A DNA stretch of 23,524 bases from the NCBI GenBank assembly GCA_046725875.1, contig JBKOZJ010000136.1:1-23524 (forward strand). The letters run 5' to 3'. Under the pieces are notes generated by a model. The model was not told the DNA's origin. It saw only the letters and a list, made by a program, of their open reading frames with translations, and did not search any database. The translations under genes and the position numbers were made by a program. Below, piece by piece: positions 1-22,048 of the stretch; position 1 is the stretch's first letter, and each line of letters opens with the position of its first letter. The DNA comes from Actinomycetota bacterium. GTDB taxonomy: Bacteria; Actinomycetota; Actinomycetes; JAKEEW01.

Positions 1-2
1 GT

Positions 3-209
3 CTATGGCCCATCGGCGTAGTTTTCAGCCGCGAGGTTCAACCGAGCGCGGGCTCCGCGCTGCCCATTGTCTCCCCGCACCTTCGTATCATCGGTTCCGG
101 CGAGCGCCGCCCTTGTGTCCGGCCTCTCCAAGAGGTCGACCATTGCCTTTTGGACAACCTCGTCAACGTCGTCCATCTTGCGGCGGATGAAAGCACTTCG
201 GGCATGCAT
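3..209 (-). pseudogene. C-terminal fragment of a second large serine recombinase paralog (degenerate remnant; continues past the left window edge)
   Basis: The translation (MHARSAFIRRKMDDVDEVVQKAMVDLLERPDTRAALAG...NYADGP) aligns at about 60% identity to the zinc-ribbon/coiled-coil region (CFLRRKMADVDFVVEQAVLGLLERADTKAALAG...NYAEGL) of the intact recombinase at 282-1733. DNA similarity is visible between 150-235 and 690-790 and stops abruptly near 235. An in-frame stop lies 2 codons upstream of the first Met, and the CPRC zinc-ribbon cysteines are replaced. Confidence 0.6.
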
Positions 210-281
210 AGGCGTCTACCGTGCCATGGTGGCCAACCACTGAGTGCTAACGCCTCAGAGCTGAACCTCGTTCGCAGGCTC

Positions 282-1733
282 CTATTGGCTCCGTCGCGTG
301 ACCTGCGCTCCGAACAGGTCGTCCCTCTTTCCGGAGCCGAGCGGCTGGACCTTGACCTCGACGAGGACGCGGATAACCGCCCTCTTGCGGTCGAGCGATA
401 TCTCGCCGGTCTCCCACCGCCGGCGGATGTCAGGCGTAGTCAGGTCCATCAGGTCCGGGTGGGCTGACTGTGCGCGTGCCTCCGACTCGTACCTCTCCAG
501 CTCAGGGCGGAGCTTTGCCGTGATACGTGCGAGCTGCTCCCCGTCGATGAGCCCTTCTGCATAGTTGTCGGCTGCGACGTTGAGTCGTGCGCGCACGGCT
601 TCCGCGTTGTCGAGAGCTGCCTGCACCTGGGACTCGTCGGCTCCAGCGAGCGCCGCCTTCGTATCCGCGCGCTCCAGCAGCCCGAGAACAGCCTGTTCGA
701 CCACGAAGTCAACGTCGGCCATCTTTCGCCGCAGGAAGCACCTAGGGCATGAGTATGCGTTTATCGTGCCATGCTGCGGCTGGCCGACTAGGGACCGAAG
801 CGGTGTTGGCGGGTCGCAGCGGCCACACAGCGCGATCCCAGTAAGCAGATGCCTCCGGGCTGTGGTGCCGGGTCCACGATTGGCCTTCATGAGCGCCACC
901 AGCCGGTCGTACGTCGACTCGTCTACGATCGGCTCCCAATCGCCCTTGCCAATTACGGCGTTGCTTCCCTGCTTCGCCTGCTTGCGCTTCTGGTGGACGC
1001 GAAGACCAGCGTTGCGCTCCCGTAGAATGACTTGGCGGAGCATGGTGCCGTCCCATTCCTTGCCTCGTGGTGATGGGATGCAGCGCTTACTGAAGTCGGC
1101 GCTGATCGAGCGCTGGCTCTCACCTTCTAGAAGCCGCCTGATCGCCTCCCGGATGACGGCGGCTTGCTCGGGGTGGAGGATGTCACGGGAGCTGACGTAC
1201 CGGCCGTGTTCGTCAGACTCGACCACGCGCTGCCAGCCGTACGGCACGAAACCATGCGGTTTACCAGCCTCGGCGCGTTCCAGAGTCTTCCGTTGGATGC
1301 GGCGGCTCATTTGCTCCACCTCCAGCCGAGCGAAGACGCCCTTCATCCTGGCGTGCGCCCGGCCGCTCGGGGTGGCGAGATCGAATTCGCCACCCACGCT
1401 CGCTAGTGCGATCTGCTTCTTGTCCGCTAAGGCGATGATGTCTTCAAGCTCGCGAGGGGTACGGGTGAGTCGGTCAACGTCCCACACGATGAGCGCGTCG
1501 ATCTTGCCAGCGTCGATGTCCGCGAGGAGTCGCTGATAGTCGGGGCGGTCCTTGGCGTTGTAGGCGCTCCTGTCGTTGTCGACGTACAGAAGCTCGACCG
1601 GCTCGATCACGTCCCAGCCTTTAGCCCTCGCCAGCTTGCGGCAGTCTTCAATCTGGCGCTGAACACCCAGCGCTGTGCCCTCGTCATCCTTGCTGATCCG
1701 CGCGTAGATCGCGGCCCTAACCCAATCCATCAT
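282..1733 (-). CDS. large serine recombinase (integrase/resolvase family, 483 aa)
   Basis: The N-terminus has a resolvase-type catalytic domain (AAIYARISKDDEG...GVQRQ...DRLTR, catalytic Ser context), followed by the recombinase domain, a CxxC zinc ribbon (CGRC...CPRC) and a C-terminal coiled coil. GC content is lower than the surrounding genes. Confidence 0.9.
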   Translation of the reverse strand: MMDWVRAAIYARISKDDEGTALGVQRQIEDCRKLARAKGWDVIEPVELLYVDNDRSAYNAKDRPDYQRLLADIDAGKIDALIVWDVDRLTRTPRELEDIIALADKKQIALASVGGEFDLATPSGRAHARMKGVFARLEVEQMSRRIQRKTLERAEAGKPHGFVPYGWQRVVESDEHGRYVSSRDILHPEQAAVIREAIRRLLEGESQRSISADFSKRCIPSPRGKEWDGTMLRQVILRERNAGLRVHQKRKQAKQGSNAVIGKGDWEPIVDESTYDRLVALMKANRGPGTTARRHLLTGIALCGRCDPPTPLRSLVGQPQHGTINAYSCPRCFLRRKMADVDFVVEQAVLGLLERADTKAALAGADESQVQAALDNAEAVRARLNVAADNYAEGLIDGEQLARITAKLRPELERYESEARAQSAHPDLMDLTTPDIRRRWETGEISLDRKRAVIRVLVEVKVQPLGSGKRDDLFGAQVTRRSQ

Positions 1734-1861
1734 GGATCAGATGATACAGCGATGATGGCTCCGGTCGTCTTCATGATTCTGCCGCTCACAGTGATCTTCG
1801 CGCTGTTCCCAGGTTTCTACGGCTTCACCCTCACGTCCCCCTAGTTGGAGTCATGATGTTG

Positions 1862-2056
1862 ATGGAGACCATCGCGGCGCTCGTGCGCCGATTCTCGGCC
1901 CGGTTACCGGGTGGCCGATCCGATCGAGGCGACGTTCCCGGCTGGGTCCTGATCACGATCATGACGGCCGGCCTGGTCACGGCGCTCTGGGCGATTGCCG
2001 GTCCCAAGCTCGGCGAGCTGCTGACGGACGCGCTCGACTCCGTGACCGGACCGTGA
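1862..2056 (+). CDS. small Flp/DUF4244-like membrane protein of Tad pilus loci (start could also be 1853 or 1856)
   Basis: A roughly 65-aa protein with a charged N-terminus (RGD) followed by a single hydrophobic helix (PGWVLITIMTAGLVTALWAIAG). It is the first gene of a TadE/TadE/Tad cluster, as in actinobacterial tad operons. GGAG lies 11 nt upstream of the ATG at 1862. Confidence 0.5.
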   Translation: METIAALVRRFSARLPGGRSDRGDVPGWVLITIMTAGLVTALWAIAGPKLGELLTDALDSVTGP

Positions 2057-2080
2057 ACCGGAGCACTCACTCGGCCAGAA

Positions 2081-2494
2081 GTGGCTGCTGTTATGACCGG
2101 CGAGAACCACCGAATGCGTCCTTCCGCGGACCGGGGTGCGGCTGTCGTCGAATTCACCCTTGTGACGATCGTGCTTGTCGCTCTCTTCCTCGCCATCGTG
2201 CAGCTCGCCCTCGCGCTGTATGTGCGGAACACATTGGTCGCCGCCGCCGCTGAAGGCGCGCGGTATGCAGCCAACGCTGATCGGGACGTCGCCGATGGCG
2301 AAGCCCGCACACGCCAGCTGGTGTCAGCCTCGCTCGGCGATGGGTTCGCCGGGGACATTCGCGCGGGCCGCGTGATGGTGGACGGGGTGCCGACCGTGGT
2401 GGTTGAGGTCCGCGCCACGCTGCCGCTGGTCGGGCTGGCCGGCCCGGATCGCTTGCTCGTCGTGCGCGGACATGCCTTCGACGAGGAAGGTTAG
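2081..2494 (+). CDS. TadE-like pilus assembly protein
   Basis: N-terminal TadE signature DRGAAVVEFTLVTIVLVALFLAIVQLALALY...AAEGARYAA. The start is uncertain (GTG 2081 or ATG 2093). Confidence 0.75.
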   Translation: MAAVMTGENHRMRPSADRGAAVVEFTLVTIVLVALFLAIVQLALALYVRNTLVAAAAEGARYAANADRDVADGEARTRQLVSASLGDGFAGDIRAGRVMVDGVPTVVVEVRATLPLVGLAGPDRLLVVRGHAFDEEG

Positions 2495-2502
2495 GGAGCA
2501 GC

Positions 2503-3021
2503 GTGCAGCCCCCTCTGGCACGCGTTGGCGTGGTCATGCTGGCAATGCTCGATCCTGGCGATGCGTACGCGGAAGTCGGCGACGAGATCCGGTCTCGGCC
2601 CGATCAGGGGAGCGCGATTGTCGAGTTCTGCTTCCTGGCGCTGCTGCTGATGGTGCCTCTGGTCTACGTCGTGCTCGCGGTCTTCCGGGTCCAGGCCGAG
2701 GCGTACGGCATAACCGCAGCCGCCCGCGAGGCCGGCCGCGCCTTTGTCACAACGGATGAGTCGGTACTGGCGATGGATCGGGCTCGGGTAGCTGCATCGG
2801 TCGCCGCGGCGGACCACGGCGTCGAACTGCCGCCGGACGCGCTGACGATTTCCTGTAGTGCGCAGCCGTGCCTAACCGCGGGCGGCCGCGTGTACATCGC
2901 GATCGACGCGAGCGTGCCGCTGCCCTTCCTTCCGCCGGTACTGGGCGATCGGGCGGCTGCGTCCATTGCCGTACACGCTCGGCACACCGAGGTCGTGGAC
3001 ACCTATCGAATGGTGAACTAG
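2503..3021 (+). CDS. TadE-like pilus assembly protein (second copy)
   Basis: Motif GSAIVEFCFLALLLMVPLVYVVLAVFRVQAEAYGITAAAREAGRA. The GTG start at 2503 is preceded by GAGGAAGG/AGGGAG ribosome-binding sequences. The gene is translationally coupled to the upstream gene. Confidence 0.7.
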   Translation: MQPPLARVGVVMLAMLDPGDAYAEVGDEIRSRPDQGSAIVEFCFLALLLMVPLVYVVLAVFRVQAEAYGITAAAREAGRAFVTTDESVLAMDRARVAASVAAADHGVELPPDALTISCSAQPCLTAGGRVYIAIDASVPLPFLPPVLGDRAAASIAVHARHTEVVDTYRMVN

Positions 3022-3062
3022 TGAGAAGGCTCCATCTCCTGCGATTACGCCGCCCAAGCCGG

Positions 3063-3593
3063 GTGACCCACCGGCTGCAACGTCTCCAGCCAGCCAGCAG
3101 GATCCCTCGCTCCAATCCTGTCCGGGCACGGTGCTCTGCTACTGCGACCGCTAGTGACTGCGGTCAGGCCACGCTCCTTGTCATTGGCCTGGCCGTGGTC
3201 CTGGTCGCTCTGGTGGCGGTGGTCGTCGACGCCTCTCGGCTGTTCCTTTATCGACGGTCGCTCGCTACGGCGGCCGATGGCGCCGCCACCGCGGCGATCC
3301 AAGGCGTGCATGAAGCGGCGATCTATCGTGATCCGGACGCCTTCGCCGACGGAGCGTTACCGATCGATCCGTCGGCCGCAACGGCCGCTGTCCAGCGCTA
3401 CGCACAAGAAAACGATCTCACCGGGCGGTTCGACGATTTCGCCGTCCGGTCGGTGGCGGTAACCGGTACGACCACCGTAACGGTGATCTTCACCGCGACG
3501 GTCGATCTGCCGTTCACGGCAGCGGTCCCTTTAGGGTCCATCGAGCGGCCGCTGATCGTCGTCACCTCCTCAGCGCGGGCGCCGATCGGGTGA
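3063..3593 (+). CDS. Tad-domain (TadE/G-like N-terminal) pilus assembly protein
   Basis: The hydrophobic N-terminal segment followed by VVDASRLFLYRRSLATAADGAATAA matches the putative Flp-pilus assembly TadE/G-like N-terminal domain. The start is inferred at the in-frame GTG at 3063. Confidence 0.6.
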   Translation: MTHRLQRLQPASRIPRSNPVRARCSATATASDCGQATLLVIGLAVVLVALVAVVVDASRLFLYRRSLATAADGAATAAIQGVHEAAIYRDPDAFADGALPIDPSAATAAVQRYAQENDLTGRFDDFAVRSVAVTGTTTVTVIFTATVDLPFTAAVPLGSIERPLIVVTSSARAPIG

Positions 3594-3667
3594 CTTCGCG
3601 CGAGGATCGCCACGCCGCTTACCAGCGTTTCTGTCGTACCCACCGCGATCATCTAGGCTAGATAAGC

Positions 3668-4789
3668 GTGGCTGCCGTGTTTTCAACCGAGGAGATCAGG
3701 GATCTCGAGTCGACGCTGACGTCGATCGAATCCGTGCTCGACCTGGATTCGATGCGACGTGAGATTGCCGACCTCGAGACCCAGGCGGCCGACCCCGACC
3801 TGTGGAACGATCAAGAGCGTGCACCGCGGGTGACGAGCCGGCTGTCGTATCTCCAGGGTGAGCTCGCCCGGGTGTCGAGCCTGCGTCGCAGGCTCGACGA
3901 CCTCGGCGTGCTCGCCGAGCTCGCCGAGGCGGAGGATGACGCGTCCGCTCGGGCGGAGGCCGCCACTGAGCTGGCCACGCTGCGCAAGTCGATTAGCGAA
4001 CTCGAGGTCCGCACGTTGCTCTCCGGTGAGTACGACTCCCGGGAGGCGCTCGTCACGATCCGTGCCGAGGCTGGTGGTGCCGACGCCGCCGATTTCGCCG
4101 AGAACCTCATGCGTATGTATCTGCGCTGGGCCGAGCGGCACGGCTACCCGACCGAGATCTACGACGTGTCCTATGCGGAGGAGGCGGGGATCAAGTCCGC
4201 CACGTTCGCTGTGAAGGCCCCATACGCCTATGGCACGCTCTCGGTCGAGCAGGGAACGCATCGAATGGTGCGCATCTCCGCCTATGACAACCAGGGACGT
4301 CGGCAGACTTCGTTCGCCGGTGTCGAGGTACTGCCGGTCGTCGAGCAAAGCGACCACGTGGACATTCCCGAGGACGAGATCCGCATCGACGTCTTTCGGG
4401 CTAGTGGACCAGGCGGACAGGGTGTCAACACGACCGACTCCGCCGTCCGGATCACTCACTTGCCCACCGGCATCGTCGTCTCTTGTCAAAACGAGCGGTC
4501 GCAGCTGCAGAACAAGGCGCGCGCGATGGAGGTTCTCCGGGCGAAGCTGCTCGAGCGGCGCCGGCAGGAGGAGCAGGCGAAGCTAGACGCTCTAAAGGGG
4601 GACTCCGCCGGATCGTGGGGCACCCAGATGCGGTCGTATGTGCTGCATCCGTATCAGATGGTGAAAGACCTTCGGACCGAGTACGAGACCGGCAATACCG
4701 CTGCCGTCCTTGACGGCGAAATCGACGATCTCATCGAGGCCGGCATCCGCTGGCGGCGCCAGCAGCAGCGCAGCACCGCCGCTGCCTAG
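3668..4789 (+). CDS. prfB: peptide chain release factor 2
   Basis: GGQ motif ([11 protein letters not shown]) and RF2-type conserved blocks ([52 protein letters not shown]). The frame is uninterrupted (no programmed +1 frameshift) with a GTG start. Confidence 0.95.
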
Positions 4790-6267: not shown

Positions 6268-6389
6268 ACTGTAGCGGGGGCTGGGCCGGTCCGCGGCGGC
6301 AGCGCAGTCGCCTGGCTTTAGTCCGGTTTCGTCCGATCACGCTCTTTTGTAGCCGACGCGTGATCAAACTGATAGCTTCGCGAAAATTC

Positions 6390-6583
6390 GATCTGTGACC
6401 TGCAGTTAGTCACGGAAGGTAAACGAATGACGAATGGCTGATCGCGAATTGATCGGTCGGATGATGGCATTCGTCGCTGATCTTCCCTAGCCTGCTGCCC
6501 GCTCGGGTCCTCCGCATAACACGGACGGCCCCGCATGCGATTTATCGAGAAGAAGCTGACCGTCCAACACTCCCTTGGGGGAC
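6390..6583 (+). promoter_or_regulatory. conserved promoter/5' leader block of LPXTG gene 1 (paralogous to 7465-7661)
   Basis: About 80% nucleotide identity to the region upstream of the second LPXTG gene across roughly 200 bp, including the AGTTnGTnAC...AGGTnAACGnAATnACGAAnGG and CGGATGATGGCAT...CCTGCTGnCCGCTCGGG...TAACACGGACGGCCCCG...TGCGATTTAnCGAGAAGAAGCT blocks. GGGGGAC lies just before the start codon. Confidence 0.5.
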
Positions 6584-7306
6584 GTGGTGTCATTAGCCAG
6601 GAAGCTTGCAGCGATCGCCGGCGGCTCGGTCCTCGGGATTATGGCTGCCATTGCGACCGCCAGTCCGGCCGCCGCGCAGGATGCTGATCCGCCCGGCAAC
6701 AACGGCACGATCAAGGTTGACAACGAACCGTTCGACTCGCATCCCAATAACCAGCCACACGTCGGATGCGTGTTCGAGATTGACTTCTACGGATACGACG
6801 AGGGCGACCTGTCCGCCGACGTCACCTTCGAGGCGCACGCACCCACGACCCGTGAGGACGACGACCAGGTCCTGCTGACAGACACAGTCTTCATCGGCGA
6901 GGACGCCGCCGGCGGCGGCACCGACCTGGACGCCTCAAGACAGTACACATTGGACTTCACCGGCATCACGCCACACTCCAAGCAGGGCTTCCACGTCAAG
7001 CTCACCATCAACGCCGAGGGTTCGATCGGCGCTGCCCTGAAGCACAAGGTCTTCTGGGTGACGGGCTGTGTCCCAACCGAGACACCGTCGAACGGGACAC
7101 CGTCGAACGGGACACCGTCGAACGGGACACCGTCGAACGGGACACCGGGTGGCGGGGCACCGCCGGGCGGTGAGGTCCTGCCAAAGACGGGCTCTGGGTT
7201 CCCCGTAGGCAACGCTGCGCTCCTGGCCATCTTCCTACTGGCAGCCGGCGGCGCACTGCTCGTCTCACGTGGAGTGATTCAGCTGCCCTACCGCCGCAGG
7301 CACTGA
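6584..7306 (+). CDS. LPXTG-anchored cell-surface protein 1 (sortase substrate); TTG 6575 or GTG 6587 are alternative starts
   Basis: It has a signal peptide (VVSLARKLAAIAGGSVLGIMAAIATASPAAAQDA) and a roughly 130-aa mature domain with 2 Cys. A (TPSNG)x4 stalk is followed by LPKTG, a hydrophobic segment (AALLAIFLLAAGGALLV) and a basic tail (YRRRH). Confidence 0.85.
   Translation: MVSLARKLAAIAGGSVLGIMAAIATASPAAAQDADPPGNNGTIKVDNEPFDSHPNNQPHVGCVFEIDFYGYDEGDLSADVTFEAHAPTTREDDDQVLLTDTVFIGEDAAGGGTDLDASRQYTLDFTGITPHSKQGFHVKLTINAEGSIGAALKHKVFWVTGCVPTETPSNGTPSNGTPSNGTPSNGTPGGGAPPGGEVLPKTGSGFPVGNAALLAIFLLAAGGALLVSRGVIQLPYRRRH
7081..7155 (+). repeat. perfect 15-bp tandem repeat gacaccgtcgaacgg x4 plus one degenerate unit (encodes TPSNG repeats)
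   Basis: Four identical units span 7081-7140 and a diverged fifth follows. The array is in-frame within the stalk of LPXTG protein 1. Confidence 0.9.
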
Positions 7307-7383: not shown

Positions 7384-7464
7384 AGCGGATTGCGCGCATG
7401 CTTCGATGCGTACTCTCGCCCTTTGCTGCGTGTCGTGGTCGAGCCGATACCTTTGCCGAAAATT

Positions 7465-7661
7465 GTGGCTGACCGTAGTTGGTGACATTAGGTGAACGGA
7501 ATAACGAACGGTCGACCCCTACGTAGACCGCTCGGATGATGGCATCCGTTGCCCGTCTCGCCCTAACCTGCTGTCCGCTCGGGGTTCTTCGTGTAACACG
7601 GACGGCCCCGTGTGCGATTTACCGAGAAGAAGCTCGTCATCCACACACATCCCCGGGGGAC
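7465..7661 (+). promoter_or_regulatory. conserved promoter/5' leader block of LPXTG gene 2 (paralogous to 6390-6583)
   Basis: Same conserved blocks as the gene-1 leader. Local hairpins: ggatg-atgg-catcc, cgggg-N22-ccccg and cgag-aagaag-ctcg. Confidence 0.5.
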
Positions 7662-8351
7662 GTGGTGTTAATACGTAGGAAGATCGCAACCATAGGTGGC
7701 GGTTTGCTGCTCGGCACACTGGCGGCGGCCCTAACAGCGGGTCCGGCCCACGCCGACGGCACCGTGGTGCCGGACAACCCGACCTGCTCCGACTTGATCC
7801 CGGGCTCGACCGAGCTGAAGGTCGAGCCGGTGGCCGATGGCACGTTCACCACGGACGGGTTCTCGGTAACTTTGGACGTCCGGATGCTAACCGCCGACGA
7901 CCCCCAGCATGCGGGCGACCAGACCGGTAGCCAGGTGGTCGACTTCACCGCCACCGGCGGCACCGTTATCGGTGTTGTGGTTAAGGGCGGACCGACAGCC
8001 AACTTCTACGACTACCGCCCGGCTGGGGTAACCAGCGGCACAGGCCTGCACGCGCCGGCTCTGGATCAGCAGAATAACCAGAAGTTCGCCGGGCTCAGCC
8101 ACATCTCGTTCTGCTTCGCGCCGCCAACGACGACCACGACGAGCGCGCCACCCACGACGACGAGCGCGCCACCCACGACGACGACTCCGCCGGCCCCGAC
8201 GTCACCACTGCCCACGACGCTGCCGAAGACAGGCACTGGGTTCCCGGTGGGCTCGGCCGCTCTGTTCGCGGTGTTCTTGCTCGCAGTGGGCGGCGGCGCG
8301 CTGCTCCTCTCCCGCGGTGGTATCCAGCTGCCGTACCGCCGCAAGCACTAA
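7662..8351 (+). CDS. LPXTG-anchored cell-surface protein 2 (paralogous ends, unrelated mature domain); GTG 7665 alternative start
   Basis: It has a signal peptide (VVLIRRKIATIGGGLLLGTLAAALTAGPAHADG) and a distinct mature domain with 2 Cys. A Thr/Pro-rich stalk (PPTTTTTSAPPTTTSAPPTTTTPPAPTSPLPTT) is followed by LPKTG, a hydrophobic segment and YRRKH. The upstream Met at 7536 is unlikely because the region encodes no signal peptide and aligns to the non-coding leader of gene 1. Confidence 0.85.
   Translation: MVLIRRKIATIGGGLLLGTLAAALTAGPAHADGTVVPDNPTCSDLIPGSTELKVEPVADGTFTTDGFSVTLDVRMLTADDPQHAGDQTGSQVVDFTATGGTVIGVVVKGGPTANFYDYRPAGVTSGTGLHAPALDQQNNQKFAGLSHISFCFAPPTTTTTSAPPTTTSAPPTTTTPPAPTSPLPTTLPKTGTGFPVGSAALFAVFLLAVGGGALLLSRGGIQLPYRRKH
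8136..8177 (+). repeat. 21-bp tandem repeat acgacgagcgcgccacccacg x2 (PTTTSAP units) in the stalk of LPXTG protein 2
   Basis: Two identical 21-nt units, followed by a diverged third unit. Confidence 0.8.
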
Positions 8352-12075: not shown

Positions 12076-12543
12076 ATGGTGCGCGAGCGTGGGCGCAAGA
12101 TGATCGCCCAGAACCGGAAGGCCCGACACGACTACCACATCGAGGACGTGTACGAGGCCGGCCTCGTGCTGACCGGGACCGAGGTCAAGTCCCTGCGGGC
12201 CGGGCGAGCCTCGCTCGTCGACGGGTATGCCGTGATCAAGGATGACGAAGCTTGGCTGATGGGCGTACATATCCCCGAGTACACCGAGGGCACCTGGACC
12301 AACCACGAGCCTCGCCGTCCGCGCAAGCTCCTCCTACATAAGCTGGAGATTCAGCGGCTGATCGGCAAGACGAAGGAGAGCGGGCTCACCCTGATACCCC
12401 TCGCGCTCTACTTCCGGGATGGTAAGGCCAAGGTCGAGATCGGCTTGGCGCGTGGCAAACGCCAGTACGACAAGCGGCAGGCACTCGCGGAGCGCCAGGC
12501 CTCGCGGGAGATGGCTCGCGCCTTGCGCCATGCAGACCGCTGA
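12076..12543 (+). CDS. smpB: SsrA-binding protein SmpB
   Basis: [41 protein letters not shown] matches the SmpB N-terminal consensus, and the C-terminal basic tail is present. Confidence 0.93.
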
Positions 12544-14777: not shown

Positions 14778-15152
14778 GGGGGTGAACGGTTTCGACTTTG
14801 GCCTTCGCGTCAAGAGAAGCGGGCCGAGGATGGCAGGGACGATCTCGTTAACCATGCCCTGCGAGAAACAAGCGCCAATGCTAAGCGCGCTGACTTCGCC
14901 CTTGCTGCCTAAGTGAGGGGCTAGCGAAGTCTGTCAGCCCGGGAGTGCTCCCGGCCCGGGATCTGGCATCGTGAGGGAGCTCAACTGGTCGGCTCGGCCG
15001 CGGGGACGACCAGGACGCCAAACAGCGGCTGGGCCTGTCGGCGGCTTGCCTGCGTGACCGCCGGGGTCGAGCAATACTGCAAGCAGGCTGCGCCCGGAGA
15101 AGTCTTGGCTCGGTGCCGAAGGACGCGGGTTCGATTCCCGCCACCTCCACCA
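14778..15152 (+). ncRNA. ssrA: tmRNA (transfer-messenger RNA)
   Basis: 5' GGGGGUG pairs with 3' CACCUCC-ACCA, including a G3-U wobble (the Ala identity element). The 3' end is a tRNA-like T-arm, GGACGCGGGTTCGATTCCCGCCACCTCCACCA. The internal tag ORF gcc aat gct aag cgc gct gac ttc gcc ctt gct gcc taa encodes ANAKRADFALAA. Its position downstream of smpB supports the call. Confidence 0.92.
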
Positions 15153-17264: not shown

Positions 17265-18656
17265 TCAGGTGGGCCCCACCCGCTCGGTGATGCCGAGCTC
17301 GTACAGCCGGGCCATCACGGGCTGGATCGCATCCTCGGGTGAAATGCCGGTGGTATCCACGACCACGTCAGCGTCGGTCGGTTCCTCGTAGGGATCCGAG
17401 ATGCCGGTGAACTCGGAAATCAGGCCGGCACGCGCCTTGGCGTACCACCCCTTCCGATCGCGCCGCTCGCACACCTCGAGCGGCGTGGCGACATGGACGA
17501 GGATGAGTTCACCGCCGGCTGCCGAGACCATCCGCCGCACCTCTTCCCGGGTCGCGGCGTAGGGCGCGATCGGTGCGCAGATCGCGATGCCCCCGTGCCG
17601 GCTGATCTCGGCGGCCACGAACCCAACGCGTCGGATATTGAGATCACGATCGGCCCGGGAGAACGTCAACCCGCTGGACAGCAGCTGCCTGACCTCGTCG
17701 CCGTCCAGCAGCGAAACCGGCACGCCATGCTGCTCGACGAGCCGGTCGCGGAGGTGGCGGGCGAGGGTGGACTTGCCGGAGCCGGACAGCCCGGTGAAGA
17801 AGACAGTGACACCTCCCCGGGAGTGCATGGAATGGGCCGCGAGAGAGGTGGGCGTGGCTGCACCCGCAACCGGCTCGCCGCGGACCAGGACCACGGGCAG
17901 CTCGGGGGGCGCCTGGGCCGCGGCGGCATCCGAGACCAGAACGTGGGTGGCTCCATAGGCGGCGCCCACCAGTGCGGCCATCTGCTCCTCGACCACATCG
18001 CTTGTCGGCGGCAACCCAAGCGGCACCACGAGTGGCCGGTTGGGCAGCTCGGCCACGGCCGCGAGGGCGGTCCGGCCGCGTTCCACCGCCGCCAGGTAGT
18101 CACCGCCGACTAGCGGGAGCAGCAGCGGCTGGGCCGTAAGCTCTTGCGCCAGCCGAGCGACGAGTGCGAGGTTGGGCCCGTCGAGCGATTCCGACAGTGG
18201 AACCCCCAGCACAGCGCCGGTCTTGGAGAGAACGGCCCGGAGATCTGCCGGCGCTCGGCGCAACGAACGGAACGGGCCGTGCGAGGCCTGGCGAAGCGGG
18301 ACCGGTGTTCCGGCGAGGTGGAACCGGTCGTCCGGATCTGACCAGACTTCCGTCACGGGGAGCGCGGCCAGCGGCACGCCCTCCCCGTCGTGGAGAGCCA
18401 CCTGACCGCCCACAGCGATCCCGGGCACAGATCCAGCTGGGCGGTCGAGCGTGACGGGCCGGGGGACGTAGCTGCCATCCGGGAGCCGGCCGCCGGACCG
18501 TACCGCCGCGTACTCCTTCTCCGTCATATAGCCGGTCACGGGTAGGGCGCCGGCCAGCAGGAGCTCGAGGCCGTCGGCTTCGGCGGTCGTCAGAGTGAGG
18601 ACCGGCCATCCTGTCGCGGCGGCCGGCAGCACGACTTCGCGTCCATACTCCGTCAA
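17265..18656 (-). CDS. adenylyl-sulfate (APS) kinase fused to an N-terminal ATP-sulfurylase-like domain with degenerate catalytic motifs
   Basis: The C-terminus carries P-loop FTGLSGSGKST, LDGD and a FISPY-like motif (APS kinase). The N-terminal part aligns to ATP-sulfurylase domains (LELLLAGALPVTGYMTEKEYAAV..., ...AAYGATHVLVS), but the QTRN, HRAH and GRD motifs are replaced (PLSE, absent, VSD). The start is inferred at TTG 18656 (GTG 18662 alternative). The longer ORF to 19274 overlaps the convergent neighbour and lacks coding character. Confidence 0.7.
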   Translation of the reverse strand: MTEYGREVVLPAAATGWPVLTLTTAEADGLELLLAGALPVTGYMTEKEYAAVRSGGRLPDGSYVPRPVTLDRPAGSVPGIAVGGQVALHDGEGVPLAALPVTEVWSDPDDRFHLAGTPVPLRQASHGPFRSLRRAPADLRAVLSKTGAVLGVPLSESLDGPNLALVARLAQELTAQPLLLPLVGGDYLAAVERGRTALAAVAELPNRPLVVPLGLPPTSDVVEEQMAALVGAAYGATHVLVSDAAAAQAPPELPVVLVRGEPVAGAATPTSLAAHSMHSRGGVTVFFTGLSGSGKSTLARHLRDRLVEQHGVPVSLLDGDEVRQLLSSGLTFSRADRDLNIRRVGFVAAEISRHGGIAICAPIAPYAATREEVRRMVSAAGGELILVHVATPLEVCERRDRKGWYAKARAGLISEFTGISDPYEEPTDADVVVDTTGISPEDAIQPVMARLYELGITERVGPT

Positions 18657-18839
18657 TGGCACCCCACCCGGTCGTAGGTTCGTCTCGATAACAGTGTTGC
18701 AGGGCAATGATGAAGCAGAGGTCGCGCTTCGAACACCACCGTTGACGTGCCAGAATCCACGGCCAACGATCGTGGTGGAGGATCTCTTGGCTAGGCGCGC
18801 GCCGGTGTGCGGACGCCGCAAAGAGGCTGGAGGAGTGGC

Positions 18840-19556
18840 ATGCACGTGGTGACAATCTCCGCTGCGTACGGTGCCGGTGGGAGCGTCGTCGGGCCGGCAG
18901 TCGCCGAACGCCTCGGCGTGCCGTTCGTCGATAGGGCCATTCCCGAAGCCGTGGCTGCCGAGATCGGCTGTTCGCTCGACGCCGCGCTCGCACATGACGG
19001 GCGGAGCGAGCCGGGGATCGGAAGGTTGTTCGCCGCCACCGCCCGGGTGCCGAACATCGCCCTGGGAGGCCTGGAGAGCTACTTGCCGCCGCAGGAGATC
19101 ATCGCCGAGGAGGAGTTCGTCCGGCGCACTGAGGAGCTCATCTGCCGGGTCGCCGACACGACGGGTGGGGTCATCCTCGGCCGTGCGGCGGCAATCGTCC
19201 TGGCCAGGCGTCCCGAAGTGCTGCACGTTCGGCTTACTGGTCCCGAGGATGCCCGGGTCCTGCAGGCGATCCACCTATATGGCCGGGACGCGGAGTCGGA
19301 GTGGCGACGGCTGCGGGAGAACGATCGGGCGCGCGCAGCCTACGTCAAGCACTTTTACCGAGCCGATGCGACCGACCCGAAGTACTACCACCTCGTGGTC
19401 GACAGCACGGCGATCCCGTTGGAGACGGTGACCGCCCTCGTCGTCACCGCAGCCCAGGGTTTCCGGCCAAAAATCGCGGAGCAGGACAAGGCCTCCGACG
19501 TTGCTCGCGATCGCTGGACCCATCGTCGAGCGCCCAGCCGCTTAAGGCGCGGATGA
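18840..19556 (+). CDS. cytidylate kinase-like family (AAA/P-loop) protein
   Basis: MHVVTISAAYGAGGSVVGPAVAERLGVPFVDRAI is the typical N-terminus of this family. GGAGGAG lies 8 nt upstream of the ATG at 18840. Confidence 0.7.
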   Translation: MHVVTISAAYGAGGSVVGPAVAERLGVPFVDRAIPEAVAAEIGCSLDAALAHDGRSEPGIGRLFAATARVPNIALGGLESYLPPQEIIAEEEFVRRTEELICRVADTTGGVILGRAAAIVLARRPEVLHVRLTGPEDARVLQAIHLYGRDAESEWRRLRENDRARAAYVKHFYRADATDPKYYHLVVDSTAIPLETVTALVVTAAQGFRPKIAEQDKASDVARDRWTHRRAPSRLRRG

Positions 19557-19630
19557 TCAAGCCTCAGCAGGGGTCCGGGCCGCGGGTATAAGACTGTGCG
19601 AAGTGGCGTGAAGGCGTAATCATTAGGGAC

Positions 19631-20212
19631 ATGAGCCAGCCGCTCACCGGTCGCTTGTTGGTTGCCACCCCGCTGCTGACCGACCCCAACTTCGCGCGCT
19701 CCGTGGTGCTGGTTCTCGATCACGATGAGGACGGCACGCTTGGCGTAGTGGTAAACCGGCCGACGCAGGTGGACGTGACTGCGGTGCTTCCGCCGTGGTC
19801 CGAGCTCACCTCCACACCGCAGGTTGTCTTCCAGGGCGGCCCGGTCGCGCTCGACAGCGCACTCGGCCTGGCGGCGGTAAACGCGACTAACGGGCCCAGC
19901 GACGGCGACGGCGAGGAGGAGCCGCTTGGCTGGCGCCGCGTACACGAGCGCATCGGCCTGGTCGATCTCGACGCACCTCCAGAGATCTTGGCTGCCGAGC
20001 TCAGCGCAATGCGGATCTTCGCCGGCTATGCCGGTTGGGGGCCTGGGCAACTGGAGGATGAGATCGCCGAGGGCGCCTGGTATGTCGTTGATGCCGAGCC
20101 CGCCGATCCATTCAGCGAAAGCCCCGACGGCCTATGGCAGCGGGTGTTGCGGCGGCAGACCGGCGAGCTCGCCTTCGTCGCAACCTTCCCGGAAGACCCG
20201 TCGATGAACTGA
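19631..20212 (+). CDS. YqgE/AlgH family protein (UPF0301)
   Basis: GRLLVATPLLTDPNFARSVVLVLDHDEDGTLGVVVNRP is the characteristic N-terminal block. Confidence 0.85.
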   Translation: MSQPLTGRLLVATPLLTDPNFARSVVLVLDHDEDGTLGVVVNRPTQVDVTAVLPPWSELTSTPQVVFQGGPVALDSALGLAAVNATNGPSDGDGEEEPLGWRRVHERIGLVDLDAPPEILAAELSAMRIFAGYAGWGPGQLEDEIAEGAWYVVDAEPADPFSESPDGLWQRVLRRQTGELAFVATFPEDPSMN

Positions 20213-20225
20213 CTACACTGGCTGG

Positions 20226-20507
20226 ATGTCCACTCCGCTGGAAAGCCCGCAGACCGAGCGTCGGCTCGGCACTCTCACCGAGGAACGGGTCAAGCCCAGC
20301 TTCGGCGACGGCGACCACGAGCGCCTCGCCCATTACGTCCAGAAGGACAAGCTCACCGACGCCGTCGTGAACGGGACTCCGGTCATTGCCCTCTGCGGCA
20401 AGGTGTGGGTGCCCAGCCGCGATCCGCAACGCTTCCCTGTCTGTCCAGAGTGCAAGGAGATCTACGAGCAGATCCCGCACAGCGACGGTGAGCAGGGCGA
20501 GTCTTAA
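20226..20507 (+). CDS. small conserved actinobacterial protein, DUF3039-like
   Basis: DGDHERLAHYVQKDKLTDAVVNGTPVIALCGKVWVPSRDPQRFPVCPECKEIY. This is a Cys-containing conserved core of about 90 aa. Confidence 0.55.
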   Translation: MSTPLESPQTERRLGTLTEERVKPSFGDGDHERLAHYVQKDKLTDAVVNGTPVIALCGKVWVPSRDPQRFPVCPECKEIYEQIPHSDGEQGES

Positions 20508-20753
20508 CTAAGCTCAGAGCCTGTTCTGTCGGTTGGGTGGTGCCGCGGATCGACAGGTTGTAGTCGCGCGAAAAGCGGTGGGCGACCGCACCCTCAGCGC
20601 GCCACCTGTACCGGTCTGATCAGTGGGCCCGTCATTGGCAGGAAGCGGCTGGGTCTATCGCAGCCAAATGATCTCTGCTGACATCTATCCCGACGACTAG
20701 TGATCCAGTACCTTTTGGGTGCCAAAACCGGCCCTTCAGAACAGGGGGCAAGT

Positions 20754-21239
20754 GTGAGCAAGAGACTCACGATCAGCGACATCGTCATCGTCGTATCCGG
20801 GGTGGTCCTCCTCGTCGCGTCGTTTCTCACGTGGGTGGACTACCCATCCCTCAACCTCGGCCCACTGGGGGCACAGCTTCAGCAGCTTGGGATCGACGTC
20901 GATATACCAACTGGTGAGCAAAATGCCTGGGACCACTTCCCAGGATTCGTCTACCCGGCCATTGGTGGCACTCTCGCCGCTCTGCTGGTGGTGCTAGGTC
21001 TCGCCAGCGTCCGGCTCGGTGACGGCGTGGCGGGCTTCAGCTTGACCCAGATTTACCTGCTGCTGGGTGCCTGGGCGTTCCTTTCCACGCTCGCCGTTGC
21101 GCTCGAGGACTTTCGTGGCGCAGACAAGGGAATCGGCCTCTGGCTGAGCTTGGCCTTCTCGGCGGTCCTCTTCGTGGGCGCCCTCATCCGCACCCAGGAG
21201 AGGGTGGCCGCGCCCGCGGCGGAGGCGACGCCGGCTTAG
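20754..21239 (+). CDS. hypothetical integral membrane protein (about 4 TM helices)
   Basis: Hydrophobic segments VIVVSGVVLLVASFLTW, TLAALLVVLGLASV, IYLLLGAWAFLSTLAVAL and LSLAFSAVLFVGALI. GTG 20754 with GGGGGC SD, though the ORF opens at 20700. Confidence 0.5.
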   Translation: MSKRLTISDIVIVVSGVVLLVASFLTWVDYPSLNLGPLGAQLQQLGIDVDIPTGEQNAWDHFPGFVYPAIGGTLAALLVVLGLASVRLGDGVAGFSLTQIYLLLGAWAFLSTLAVALEDFRGADKGIGLWLSLAFSAVLFVGALIRTQERVAAPAAEATPA

Positions 21240-21406
21240 GACAACGACACCGGCGTCCGCCCGTCACTCCGCTGACCCGGCCCCGCTCCGCGGCACCATC
21301 CGGTCCCAGGGGCGGGGCCGCCTCTTGGAGCACAAGATCGACTCCTTGCGTCGTCGGATGCCGCTAACGATGCGCGCGCCGGCGGCGCTGCCGTACATTC
21401 GGCGCT

Positions 21407-22048
21407 GTGCCCGCGGAGACGTCGCAGACGCTTGACCGTGGACTACGACTCCTCGCGGTTCTCGCCGAAGCGCCCAGCGGGCTGACGGTGACTGAGCTCG
21501 CCGGGCAACTCAGCGTGAACCGAAGCGTGGTCTACCGGCTGCTCGCCACCTTGGAGGAGCACCGGCTGGTCCGCCGGAACGGCGACGGCCGCGCCATGCT
21601 CGGTCTCGGCCTGCTCCAGCTCGCCCAGCGGGTACAGCCGCTGCTCCGGGACGCGGCGGTGCCGTCGCTGCGCCGACTCGCCGAAGAGGTGGGAGCCACC
21701 GCCCATCTCACGATTGCCGACGGCCGTGACGCTCTCGCCGTCGCCGTGGTCGAGCCGTCCTGGACCGATTATCACGTCGCATACCGCGTCGGCTCCCGGC
21801 ATCCGCTGGGCCGCGGCGCGGCCGGCCGGGCGATCCTTGCCCGCCGGCGCGGCGAAACGCTCGATCCGCCCTATGTCGTCACCGAGGGGGAGCTGCAGGT
21901 CGGCGCGCATGGGATCGCGGCACCGCTGCTGAGCGTCCCGGCGATCGAGGCGAGCGTCGGGGTGGTCGCGCTAGCCGAGCTCGATGCCCGCAAGGTGGGC
22001 CCACGGGTCGTCCGAGCGGCCGCCGACGTAGCCACCGCCCTCCGCTGA
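21407..22048 (+). CDS. IclR-family transcriptional regulator
   Basis: N-terminal wHTH (LDRGLRLLAVLAEAPSGLTVTELAGQLSVNRSVVYRLLATLEEHRLV) and a C-terminal IclR effector domain. Confidence 0.85.
   Translation: MPAETSQTLDRGLRLLAVLAEAPSGLTVTELAGQLSVNRSVVYRLLATLEEHRLVRRNGDGRAMLGLGLLQLAQRVQPLLRDAAVPSLRRLAEEVGATAHLTIADGRDALAVAVVEPSWTDYHVAYRVGSRHPLGRGAAGRAILARRRGETLDPPYVVTEGELQVGAHGIAAPLLSVPAIEASVGVVALAELDARKVGPRVVRAAADVATALR

Follow-up and report, generated by a model that had tools for sequence, protein, structure and literature searches.

A large serine integrase element that probably interrupts tadC of an actinobacterial Tad pilus operon at a site shared with related elements

The stretch of DNA analysed here (the window) comprises 23,524 nucleotides (nt) and is one whole contig of a metagenome-assembled genome (MAG) from an Actinomycetota bacterium. 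Near its left end a serine recombinase gene abuts the distal genes of a Tad/Flp pilus operon, and comparison with related loci makes it highly probable that an element encoding a large serine integrase has inserted in tadC at a CC dinucleotide, with window positions 1–1760 forming the attR end of this element. An initial annotation had described the distal half of the operon as adjoining the recombinase, a layout confirmed by the open reading frame (ORF) listing and by domain searches, and had proposed that a recombinase-bearing element entered inside or just upstream of the pilus operon. That proposal can now be sharpened, as the insertion appears to lie inside tadC, 27 codons before its stop. 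The 120-bp gap between the recombinase and the pilin genes, taken at first to be empty, in fact encodes the end of TadC, with its stop codon at 1842–1844. The features of the junction and of the operon that follows it are:

1..281, minus strand: second serine-recombinase remnant, 5'-truncated and frameshifted, matching integrase residues about 304–394 and extending past the contig end
282–1733, minus strand: serine recombinase of 483 amino acids (Resolvase PF00239, E 6e-31; Recombinase PF07508, E 3e-15)
1734..1760: element-derived P arm of attR plus integrase leader, ending in GCGATGATGGCT
1761..1762: inferred crossover dinucleotide CC, bases 1–2 of the proline codon in the TadC motif MMxP/VVF (the slash marks the break)
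1761..1844, plus strand: 3' stump of tadC, 27 codons plus a TAG stop at 1842–1844, encoding the last hydrophobic helix
1853..2056, plus strand: small membrane protein of 67 amino acids (66 if the ATG at 1856 is used) in the pilin position, a putative Flp-like prepilin
2081..2494, plus strand: TadE-like pseudopilin (PF07811, E 5.5e-12), with orthologues in 32 genomes
2503..3021, plus strand: second TadE-like protein (weak PF07811 match, E 0.32), whose position is kept in relatives
~3195..3593, plus strand: Tad/TadG-like (Rv3654c-like) protein (PF13400, E 1.6e-7; weak TIGR03816), the final operon gene before prfB; its start is uncertain and was taken from the gene call of a second assembly (L036, below)
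3668–4789, plus strand: prfB

Translation from position 1734 gives GSDDTAMMAPVVFMILPLTVIFALFPGFYGFTLTSP followed by the stop codon at 1842–1844, and within this reading frame positions 1761–1844 encode the final 27 TadC residues, PVVFMILPLTVIFALFPGFYGFTLTSP, and the stop. In tblastn searches the translated gap matches residues 277–311 of a 311-residue TadC (E 4e-10), and the gap peptide aligns with the last 35 TadC residues in nearly every related locus. From the proline onward, the stump peptide is identical to the C terminus of an intact 313-residue TadC (P0145) from a related metagenome. Thus, tadC is cut 27 codons ahead of its end, and the start codon of the recombinase (1733) lies 27 bp from the break. 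The first ~20 bp of the stump constitute the host arm (B') of attR.

Comparison loci were drawn from species-representative genomes on the basis of TadE similarity and, for relatives, through exact look-ups. The best TadE identities in the species-representative scan were 55–75%, the source organism being absent from that set. In most of the collected loci the operon runs continuously as tadA-tadB-tadC-flp-tadE-tadE-tadG, commonly upstream of prfB, and an uninterrupted tadA-tadB-tadC-flp order is found in L121, L037, L010 and L004 as well as in about 20 further loci. The nearest empty-site locus, L121, shares 84% nt identity with the window over the stretch from the tadC tail to flp. It reads GCCATGATGGTA CC GGTGGTGTTCATG, compared with GCGATGATGGCT CC GGTCGTCTTCATG in the window, and homology of the window to intact loci starts at 1749–1761. 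The attB site reconstructed for the window is GAGATCGCSATGATGGTNCC joined directly to GGTCGTCTTCATG, and the 5' fragment of tadC in the same MAG is predicted to end in ATGATGGTNCC with foreign sequence next to it. Among 27 intact loci, the attB stretch, GAGATCGCSATGATGGTN-CC-GGTSGTSTTCCT, shows strong conservation.

The position of the break is also marked by a second assembly from the same organism (L036, GCA_046727595.1), which is 99.88% identical to the window over 12.4 kb and starts exactly at 1761. Because an assembler breaks where reads offer alternative left sequences, this contig start is an independent mark of the junction at the first C of the CC dinucleotide. It also hints at heterogeneity in the population, either between empty and occupied sites or between different elements in one site. 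Junctions in other genomes give the same position: all 11 attR-type and all 9 attL-type junctions examined break at one shared proline codon. On the tail side, every junction breaks just ahead of the proline codon while the element arms vary, and at each of the nine junctions where the 5' part of tadC meets an element, the protein stops a few to ~25 non-hydrophobic residues past MMxP, so that the last helix is never replaced. For the integrase family as a whole, attL, attR and empty sites share only CC, which points to a 2-bp crossover; the window itself displays attR alone.

Occupied tadC loci in other organisms show more of the elements. On another contig (L033, Logan SRR26589678), an 82%-identical integrase has the same arrangement as in the window, and its element arm, which ends in CCGATGATGGCT directly before CC, is homologous to the P arm of the window. 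In their host genes, L033 and the window are 76% identical, as against 84% for the empty-site locus L121. The empty-site locus is thus the closer relative, and occupancy does not track phylogeny. In the closed genome of Nakamurella antarctica (CP034170, L035), a 49%-identical integrase is flanked on one side by flp with a tadC stump and on the other by tadB with a truncated tadC, so both ends of the element can be read. Its attL is ATGATGGTC CC AGCTGTCAAC and its attR is TTGACA CC CGTGGTGTTC; when the two are aligned on the proline codon, CC is their only common sequence. The attP reconstructed from them contains the inverted repeat TTGACA-CC-AGC-TGTCAA. In-silico removal of the 8,514 bp between the crossovers yields a 309-residue TadC that aligns end to end with intact TadC. 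Besides the integrase, this 8,514-bp element encodes a WhiB-like regulator, a major head protein and a small terminase; it is a small phiRv1-like or satellite-like unit rather than a full prophage. Elsewhere in this N. antarctica locus (18468–21419), a divergent prfB directly follows tadB and no tadA lies beside tadB; the tad locus may be incomplete apart from the insertion. In a Marmoricola MAG (L034, integrase 53% identical), tadA-tadB and the 5' part of tadC run straight into the integrase gene, which is followed by a D5-type primase gene, and a third related element carries a methylase and a VRR-NUC-type endonuclease. A search for TadC homologues returned intact relatives and one more tadC 5'-side junction, at L122:2280–2697 (P0174), MMVP/VNIG, with an arm resembling that of the Marmoricola element. 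No integrase is found within 280 bp of this junction, which probably represents the distal end of an element that carries its integrase at the opposite junction.

The gene at 282–1733 points away from the junction, into the element, and encodes an intact large serine integrase. Its resolvase domain (PF00239) covers residues 7–158 and contains the motif YARIS, in which Tyr10, Arg12 and Ser14 are invariant in an alignment of 30 homologues. Cys303, Cys306 and Cys329 are likewise invariant in this alignment; the zinc-ribbon model PF13408 matches many of the homologues and is not listed for the window integrase. The ORF is full length and retains every residue that is invariant in the family, including Ser14. 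Overall, the protein is a typical actinophage-type serine integrase, and the closest phage integrases, those of Mycobacterium phage Kumao and prophiGD54-2, are at most 36% identical to it. A scan of viral contigs with the integrase gave no match. No directionality factor is visible in the window, which holds only 1.7 kb of the element. The GC content at third codon positions is 0.77 in the integrase gene and 0.79–0.88 in the neighbouring host genes. Behind the integrase gene, the remnant at 1–281 gives two tblastn matches to the integrase in different frames (282..190 and 194..9). Bases 1–231 are 88% identical at the nt level to an internal segment of the integrase gene of L033, with some indels, while the integrase gene of the window is only 78% identical to that same gene. 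No independent assembly covers the remnant, which was either left behind by an earlier element or reflects a chimera at the end of the contig.

To estimate how often such loci are interrupted, we considered the 31 species-representative loci that were chosen only by TadE similarity and have a readable region. The tadC tail is cut in four of them and tadA in three, so about one in five is interrupted. Two of the four tadC cases (L015 and L027) are cut at the same CC as the window; in the other two, from G. sabuli (L031) and Klenkia brasiliensis (L026), the cut lies roughly 15–30 bp further into the tadC tail and the serine integrases are only 25–28% identical to that of the window. The three tadA cuts (L007:360–520, L025:1–130 and L032:7030–7200) fall in or beside the Walker A box (GKTT/LLN). 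A 46%-identical serine integrase adjoins the break in L007, and in L032 a Hypoth_Ymh gene lies beside the break, with rpsT nearby and no recombinase. In one further locus (L009:5145–5819) tadC is without its first ~185 codons, there is no tadA or tadB upstream and no recombinase nearby; this looks like decay of the tad locus by deletion.

Metagenome contigs were scanned with the alignment of 30 integrase homologues, which returned 80 loci with integrases of 34–51% identity. Thirteen of the 80 adjoin the tadC site, and they do so in either orientation, that is, beside the 5' part of tadC or beside its tail; a flip of the central dinucleotide would explain both orientations. Five others (L059, L061, L062, L069 and L074) adjoin a tadA break near residue 102–105 and one (L114) adjoins a tadA break near residue 346, the integrases of these six loci being 39–44% identical to that of the window. 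Given these distinct breaks in tadA and tadC, the tad operon offers at least five different integration sites. The nearest sister integrases (48–51% identity; L041–L043, L047, L048, L051, L053 and L077) are found at the 3' end of DUF222/HNH genes, where the breaks come after a KHN motif; these DUF222 genes belong to the protein family of the REP13E12 repeats. The integrase of L078 sits in a ChlI/Mg-chelatase gene, and one pair of homologues lies beside a glyoxalase gene. In a rough neighbour-joining tree the tad-targeting integrases fall in several groups.

Several statements of the initial annotation about the pilus genes themselves can be assessed from the same comparisons. It had reported tadA, tadB and tadC as absent from the window. 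In tblastn searches with TadA, TadB and TadC of an intact relative, no tadA, no tadB and no full-length tadC were found in the 23.5 kb, so this stands except for the 27-codon tadC stump. As the window is a complete MAG contig, absence from it is uninformative about the remainder of the genome. The suggestion that the pilin genes are uncoupled from their secretion genes or promoter gains support, in that recombinase-free relatives have tadC joined to flp, as would be expected if the insertion had parted them. The operon is continuous in L121, L037 and L010, and among the relatives compared none has the same arrangement minus the recombinase. The assumed gene order tadZ-tadA-tadB-tadC did not hold, since in intact relatives the place upstream of tadA is taken by a protein kinase or other genes. 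At L037:1043–4262, L034:383–8271 and L004:2748–7843 these are a Ser/Thr kinase, a two-component cluster or a large ATPase-type regulator, and no TadZ/CpaE-type gene was found upstream of tadA in these three intact relatives. The assignment of the small protein to Flp/DUF4244 likewise could not be upheld for DUF4244: at E ≤ 10 the 67-residue protein matches no Pfam model, including Flp_Fap and DUF4244.

This small protein lies directly after tadC in all related loci. It has a charged leader followed by a hydrophobic stretch, and one homologue matches Flp1_like only at E 0.09; Pfam thus lends no support to either the Flp or the DUF4244 label, and the name flp used here reflects position and shape only. 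The flp ATG lies 8 nt past the tadC stop and is preceded by GGAG 3–6 nt upstream. In intact loci (L121, L037 and L010) the gap between the tadC stop and the flp start is about 6–15 bp, consistent with co-transcription and too short to hold a promoter of its own between the genes. A scan of 1500–3800 for sigma-70-type promoters found none, with a crude E. coli-type consensus that is uninformative for actinobacterial promoters. The four distal tad ORFs are all intact and conserved.

Collectively, these data suggest the following course of events. The integrase would recombine the attP of the element with a chromosomal attB inside tadC, with crossover at the CC of the MMxP/VVF proline codon. The insertion strips the last hydrophobic helix (27 residues) off TadC and parts flp-tadE-tadE-tadG both from tadA-tadB and the 5' part of tadC and from the operon promoter. 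A TadC without its final hydrophobic helix is probably non-functional, and the Tad pilus would most likely be off while the element is resident. Precise excision by the integrase, normally with a directionality factor, would rebuild tadC. With a complete integrase ORF and undamaged distal tad genes, excision that reverses the insertion is plausible. The idea, raised in the initial annotation, of a recombination-controlled expression state of the pilus genes is plausible too. Relatives of the element are small phiRv1-like or satellite-like units or prophages. Comparison establishes the insertion and its exact position; the size and type of the element in this organism, the loss of Tad function and the ability to excise are inferred.

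Some observations weigh against this account. The contig stops 1.7 kb into the element, so that its size, cargo, directionality factor and attL lie outside the window, and neither the species-representative scan nor the search for TadC homologues located the 5' part of tadC for this MAG. TadC may retain activity without its last helix, and a promoter within the tadC stump or the P arm could still drive the distal genes, the consensus used in the scan being of E. coli type. The recombinase remnant at 1–281 may mean that the element is rearranged or decayed, and the break of the second assembly at 1761 could reflect different elements at one site rather than empty and occupied alleles.

One alternative explanation is that the insertion is a dead end, a decayed relic unable to excise, in a lineage whose Tad system is permanently broken and heading for loss. 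A truncated, frameshifted second recombinase right behind the integrase is what such decay could look like, and tad loci decay elsewhere without any recombinase, as in L009, where tadC is cut at residue 186, and in L032, where tadA is cut at Walker A; N. antarctica is without tadA beside tadB. The full-length integrase ORF with all family-invariant residues kept and the four intact, conserved distal tad ORFs argue otherwise, however, and the remnant may itself be a contig-end chimera, leading us to regard a dead end as unlikely. The opposite explanation is that the element serves its host, as a domesticated unit (like skin/sigK, SPbeta/spsM and XisF fdxN) whose programmed excision under certain conditions turns the Tad pilus on, in contrast to plain lysogeny. 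It is consistent with the intact integrase and distal tad genes, with an excision that would restore the reading frame exactly, and with a contig break at the crossover, which is compatible with mixed occupied and empty states. XisF is also the best NCBIfam match of the integrase, though at 100.7 bits it is far under the cut-off of 375, and the window and L033 share the insertion with an integrase divergence (78%) similar to that of host genes (73–76%). Yet the related elements carry capsid, terminase and primase genes and look like self-interested mobile elements, occupancy is patchy, with the empty L121 (84%) a closer relative than the occupied L033 (76%), and P arms and orientations vary by host, which indicates repeated independent integrations. 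Nor is a regulatory link to any host programme visible. A switch in the service of the host thus seems improbable, appreciably more so than a dead end.

That the recombinase-tad joint is a chimeric join in a MAG contig is very improbable. The window is a MAG contig with an odd left end, and the other assembly breaks at 1761; but the same joint with a homologous P arm is present in the independent assembly L033, and comparable junctions are seen in one closed genome as well as in over 20 further contigs that stem from various projects. Still less credible is a separate minor-pilin cluster that was never joined to tadABC, with the recombinase a mere neighbour. Only the absence of tadABC from the window speaks for it, and it is contradicted by the in-frame tadC stump directly upstream of flp and by relatives that hold an uninterrupted operon at the same place upstream of prfB. 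We therefore favour insertion of a serine integrase element into tadC. A broader and more tentative extension of this reading is that tad targeting, with at least four integrase lineages and at least five tadA/tadC sites, is an evolved strategy, and no mere by-product of conserved target sequence, in which residency of the small phiRv1-like or satellite-like elements and prophages that carry these integrases blocks Tad-dependent DNA uptake or pilus-dependent phage adsorption and excision restores the pilus. We consider this possible, though doubtful; if true, it would amount to an active-lysogeny switch for competence or adhesion across Actinomycetota.

The remainder of the window is ordinary chromosome, with genes for a flotillin, two LPKTG-type surface proteins, FtsE/FtsX, an M23 peptidase, SmpB and an acyl-CoA dehydrogenase, and a tmRNA gene. 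The ORFs at 6575–7306 and 7536–8351 encode paralogous secreted proteins without Pfam matches, both of which terminate in LPKTG with a hydrophobic segment and a basic tail behind it, in the manner of a sortase signal. Across leader and upstream sequence (6359–6636 and 7434–7714) the two are 73% identical, and the first contains the repeat TPSNG four times. In Rfam and tRNA scans of the window the sole match was the tmRNA at 14778–15152, which is unrelated to the insertion. Between smpB (12076–12543) and the tmRNA gene, whose tag is ANAKRADFALAA, lies the acyl-CoA dehydrogenase gene on the opposite strand. A sugar-transferase gene is next to the tmRNA 3' end, and no element is seen there.

If one family of integrases keeps inserting into tadC or tadA, Tad function would become a trait that differs between strains and is possibly reversible. 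Related elements occupy this tadC position, or tadA, in many actinobacteria besides the present one. Tad pili serve in adhesion, and natural transformation of Micrococcus luteus depends on the tad genes (PMC4322843). In the output of annotation pipelines, genomes interrupted in this way will show only half a tad operon. For practical use, the clade provides natural integrase-attB pairs whose 40–50 bp target is highly conserved in Actinomycetota.

Insertion of serine integrase elements into conserved genes is classical, and the present case appears to add to this known habit of large serine recombinases (LSRs). Integration at the tadC site, or at multiple sites within one actinobacterial tad operon, was not described in the literature searched, which is no proof of absence. 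Like the skin/sigK, SPbeta/spsM, phi10403S/comK and heterocyst nifD/fdxN elements, the element described here carries a recombinase and splits a gene that precise excision would rebuild (PMC4191935, PMC4874684); unlike in those systems, there is no evidence here of regulated excision or of a benefit to the host. Closer in several respects are the Bxb1 (groEL1), phiC31 and A118 (comK) prophages, with which it shares a large serine recombinase that has resolvase and recombinase domains and possibly a zinc ribbon, short att sites with a 2-bp non-palindromic crossover, and an integrase gene beside attP (PMC3783163). As in these prophages, insertion disrupts a conserved coding sequence and excision is expected to need a directionality factor; the target, in contrast, is the last TadC helix, and the related elements fall far short of phage size.

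phiRv1 of Mycobacterium tuberculosis, which integrates into REP13E12 repeats (PMC9317374), offers a parallel in scale. Like phiRv1, with its serine integrase Rv1586c, the N. antarctica relative, 8.5 kb in length, is a small unit with integrase, capsid and terminase-type genes, and the location of the sister integrases at the 3' end of DUF222/HNH genes recalls phiRv1 in REP13E12. Unlike in phiRv1, the target here is tadC rather than a repeat family. At a broader scale, large serine integrases favour competence and type II/IV secretion genes, and disruption of competence was proposed as a common strategy of LSR-bearing elements (Durrant et al. 2022, PMC10083194, Supplementary Note 1). That survey was made at the Pfam level; we found Tad, T2SSF and pilus mentioned neither in its text nor in the supplements searched, and neither the tadC site nor integration at multiple separate positions of a single actinobacterial operon appears to be described there (PMC10083194). 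The clade described here is in keeping with the reported enrichment, as it hits tadA, which encodes a T2SSE ATPase, along with DUF222/HNH and ChlI genes, and a reversible interruption of Tad would fit the proposal that LSR-bearing elements disable the DNA-uptake machinery of their hosts.

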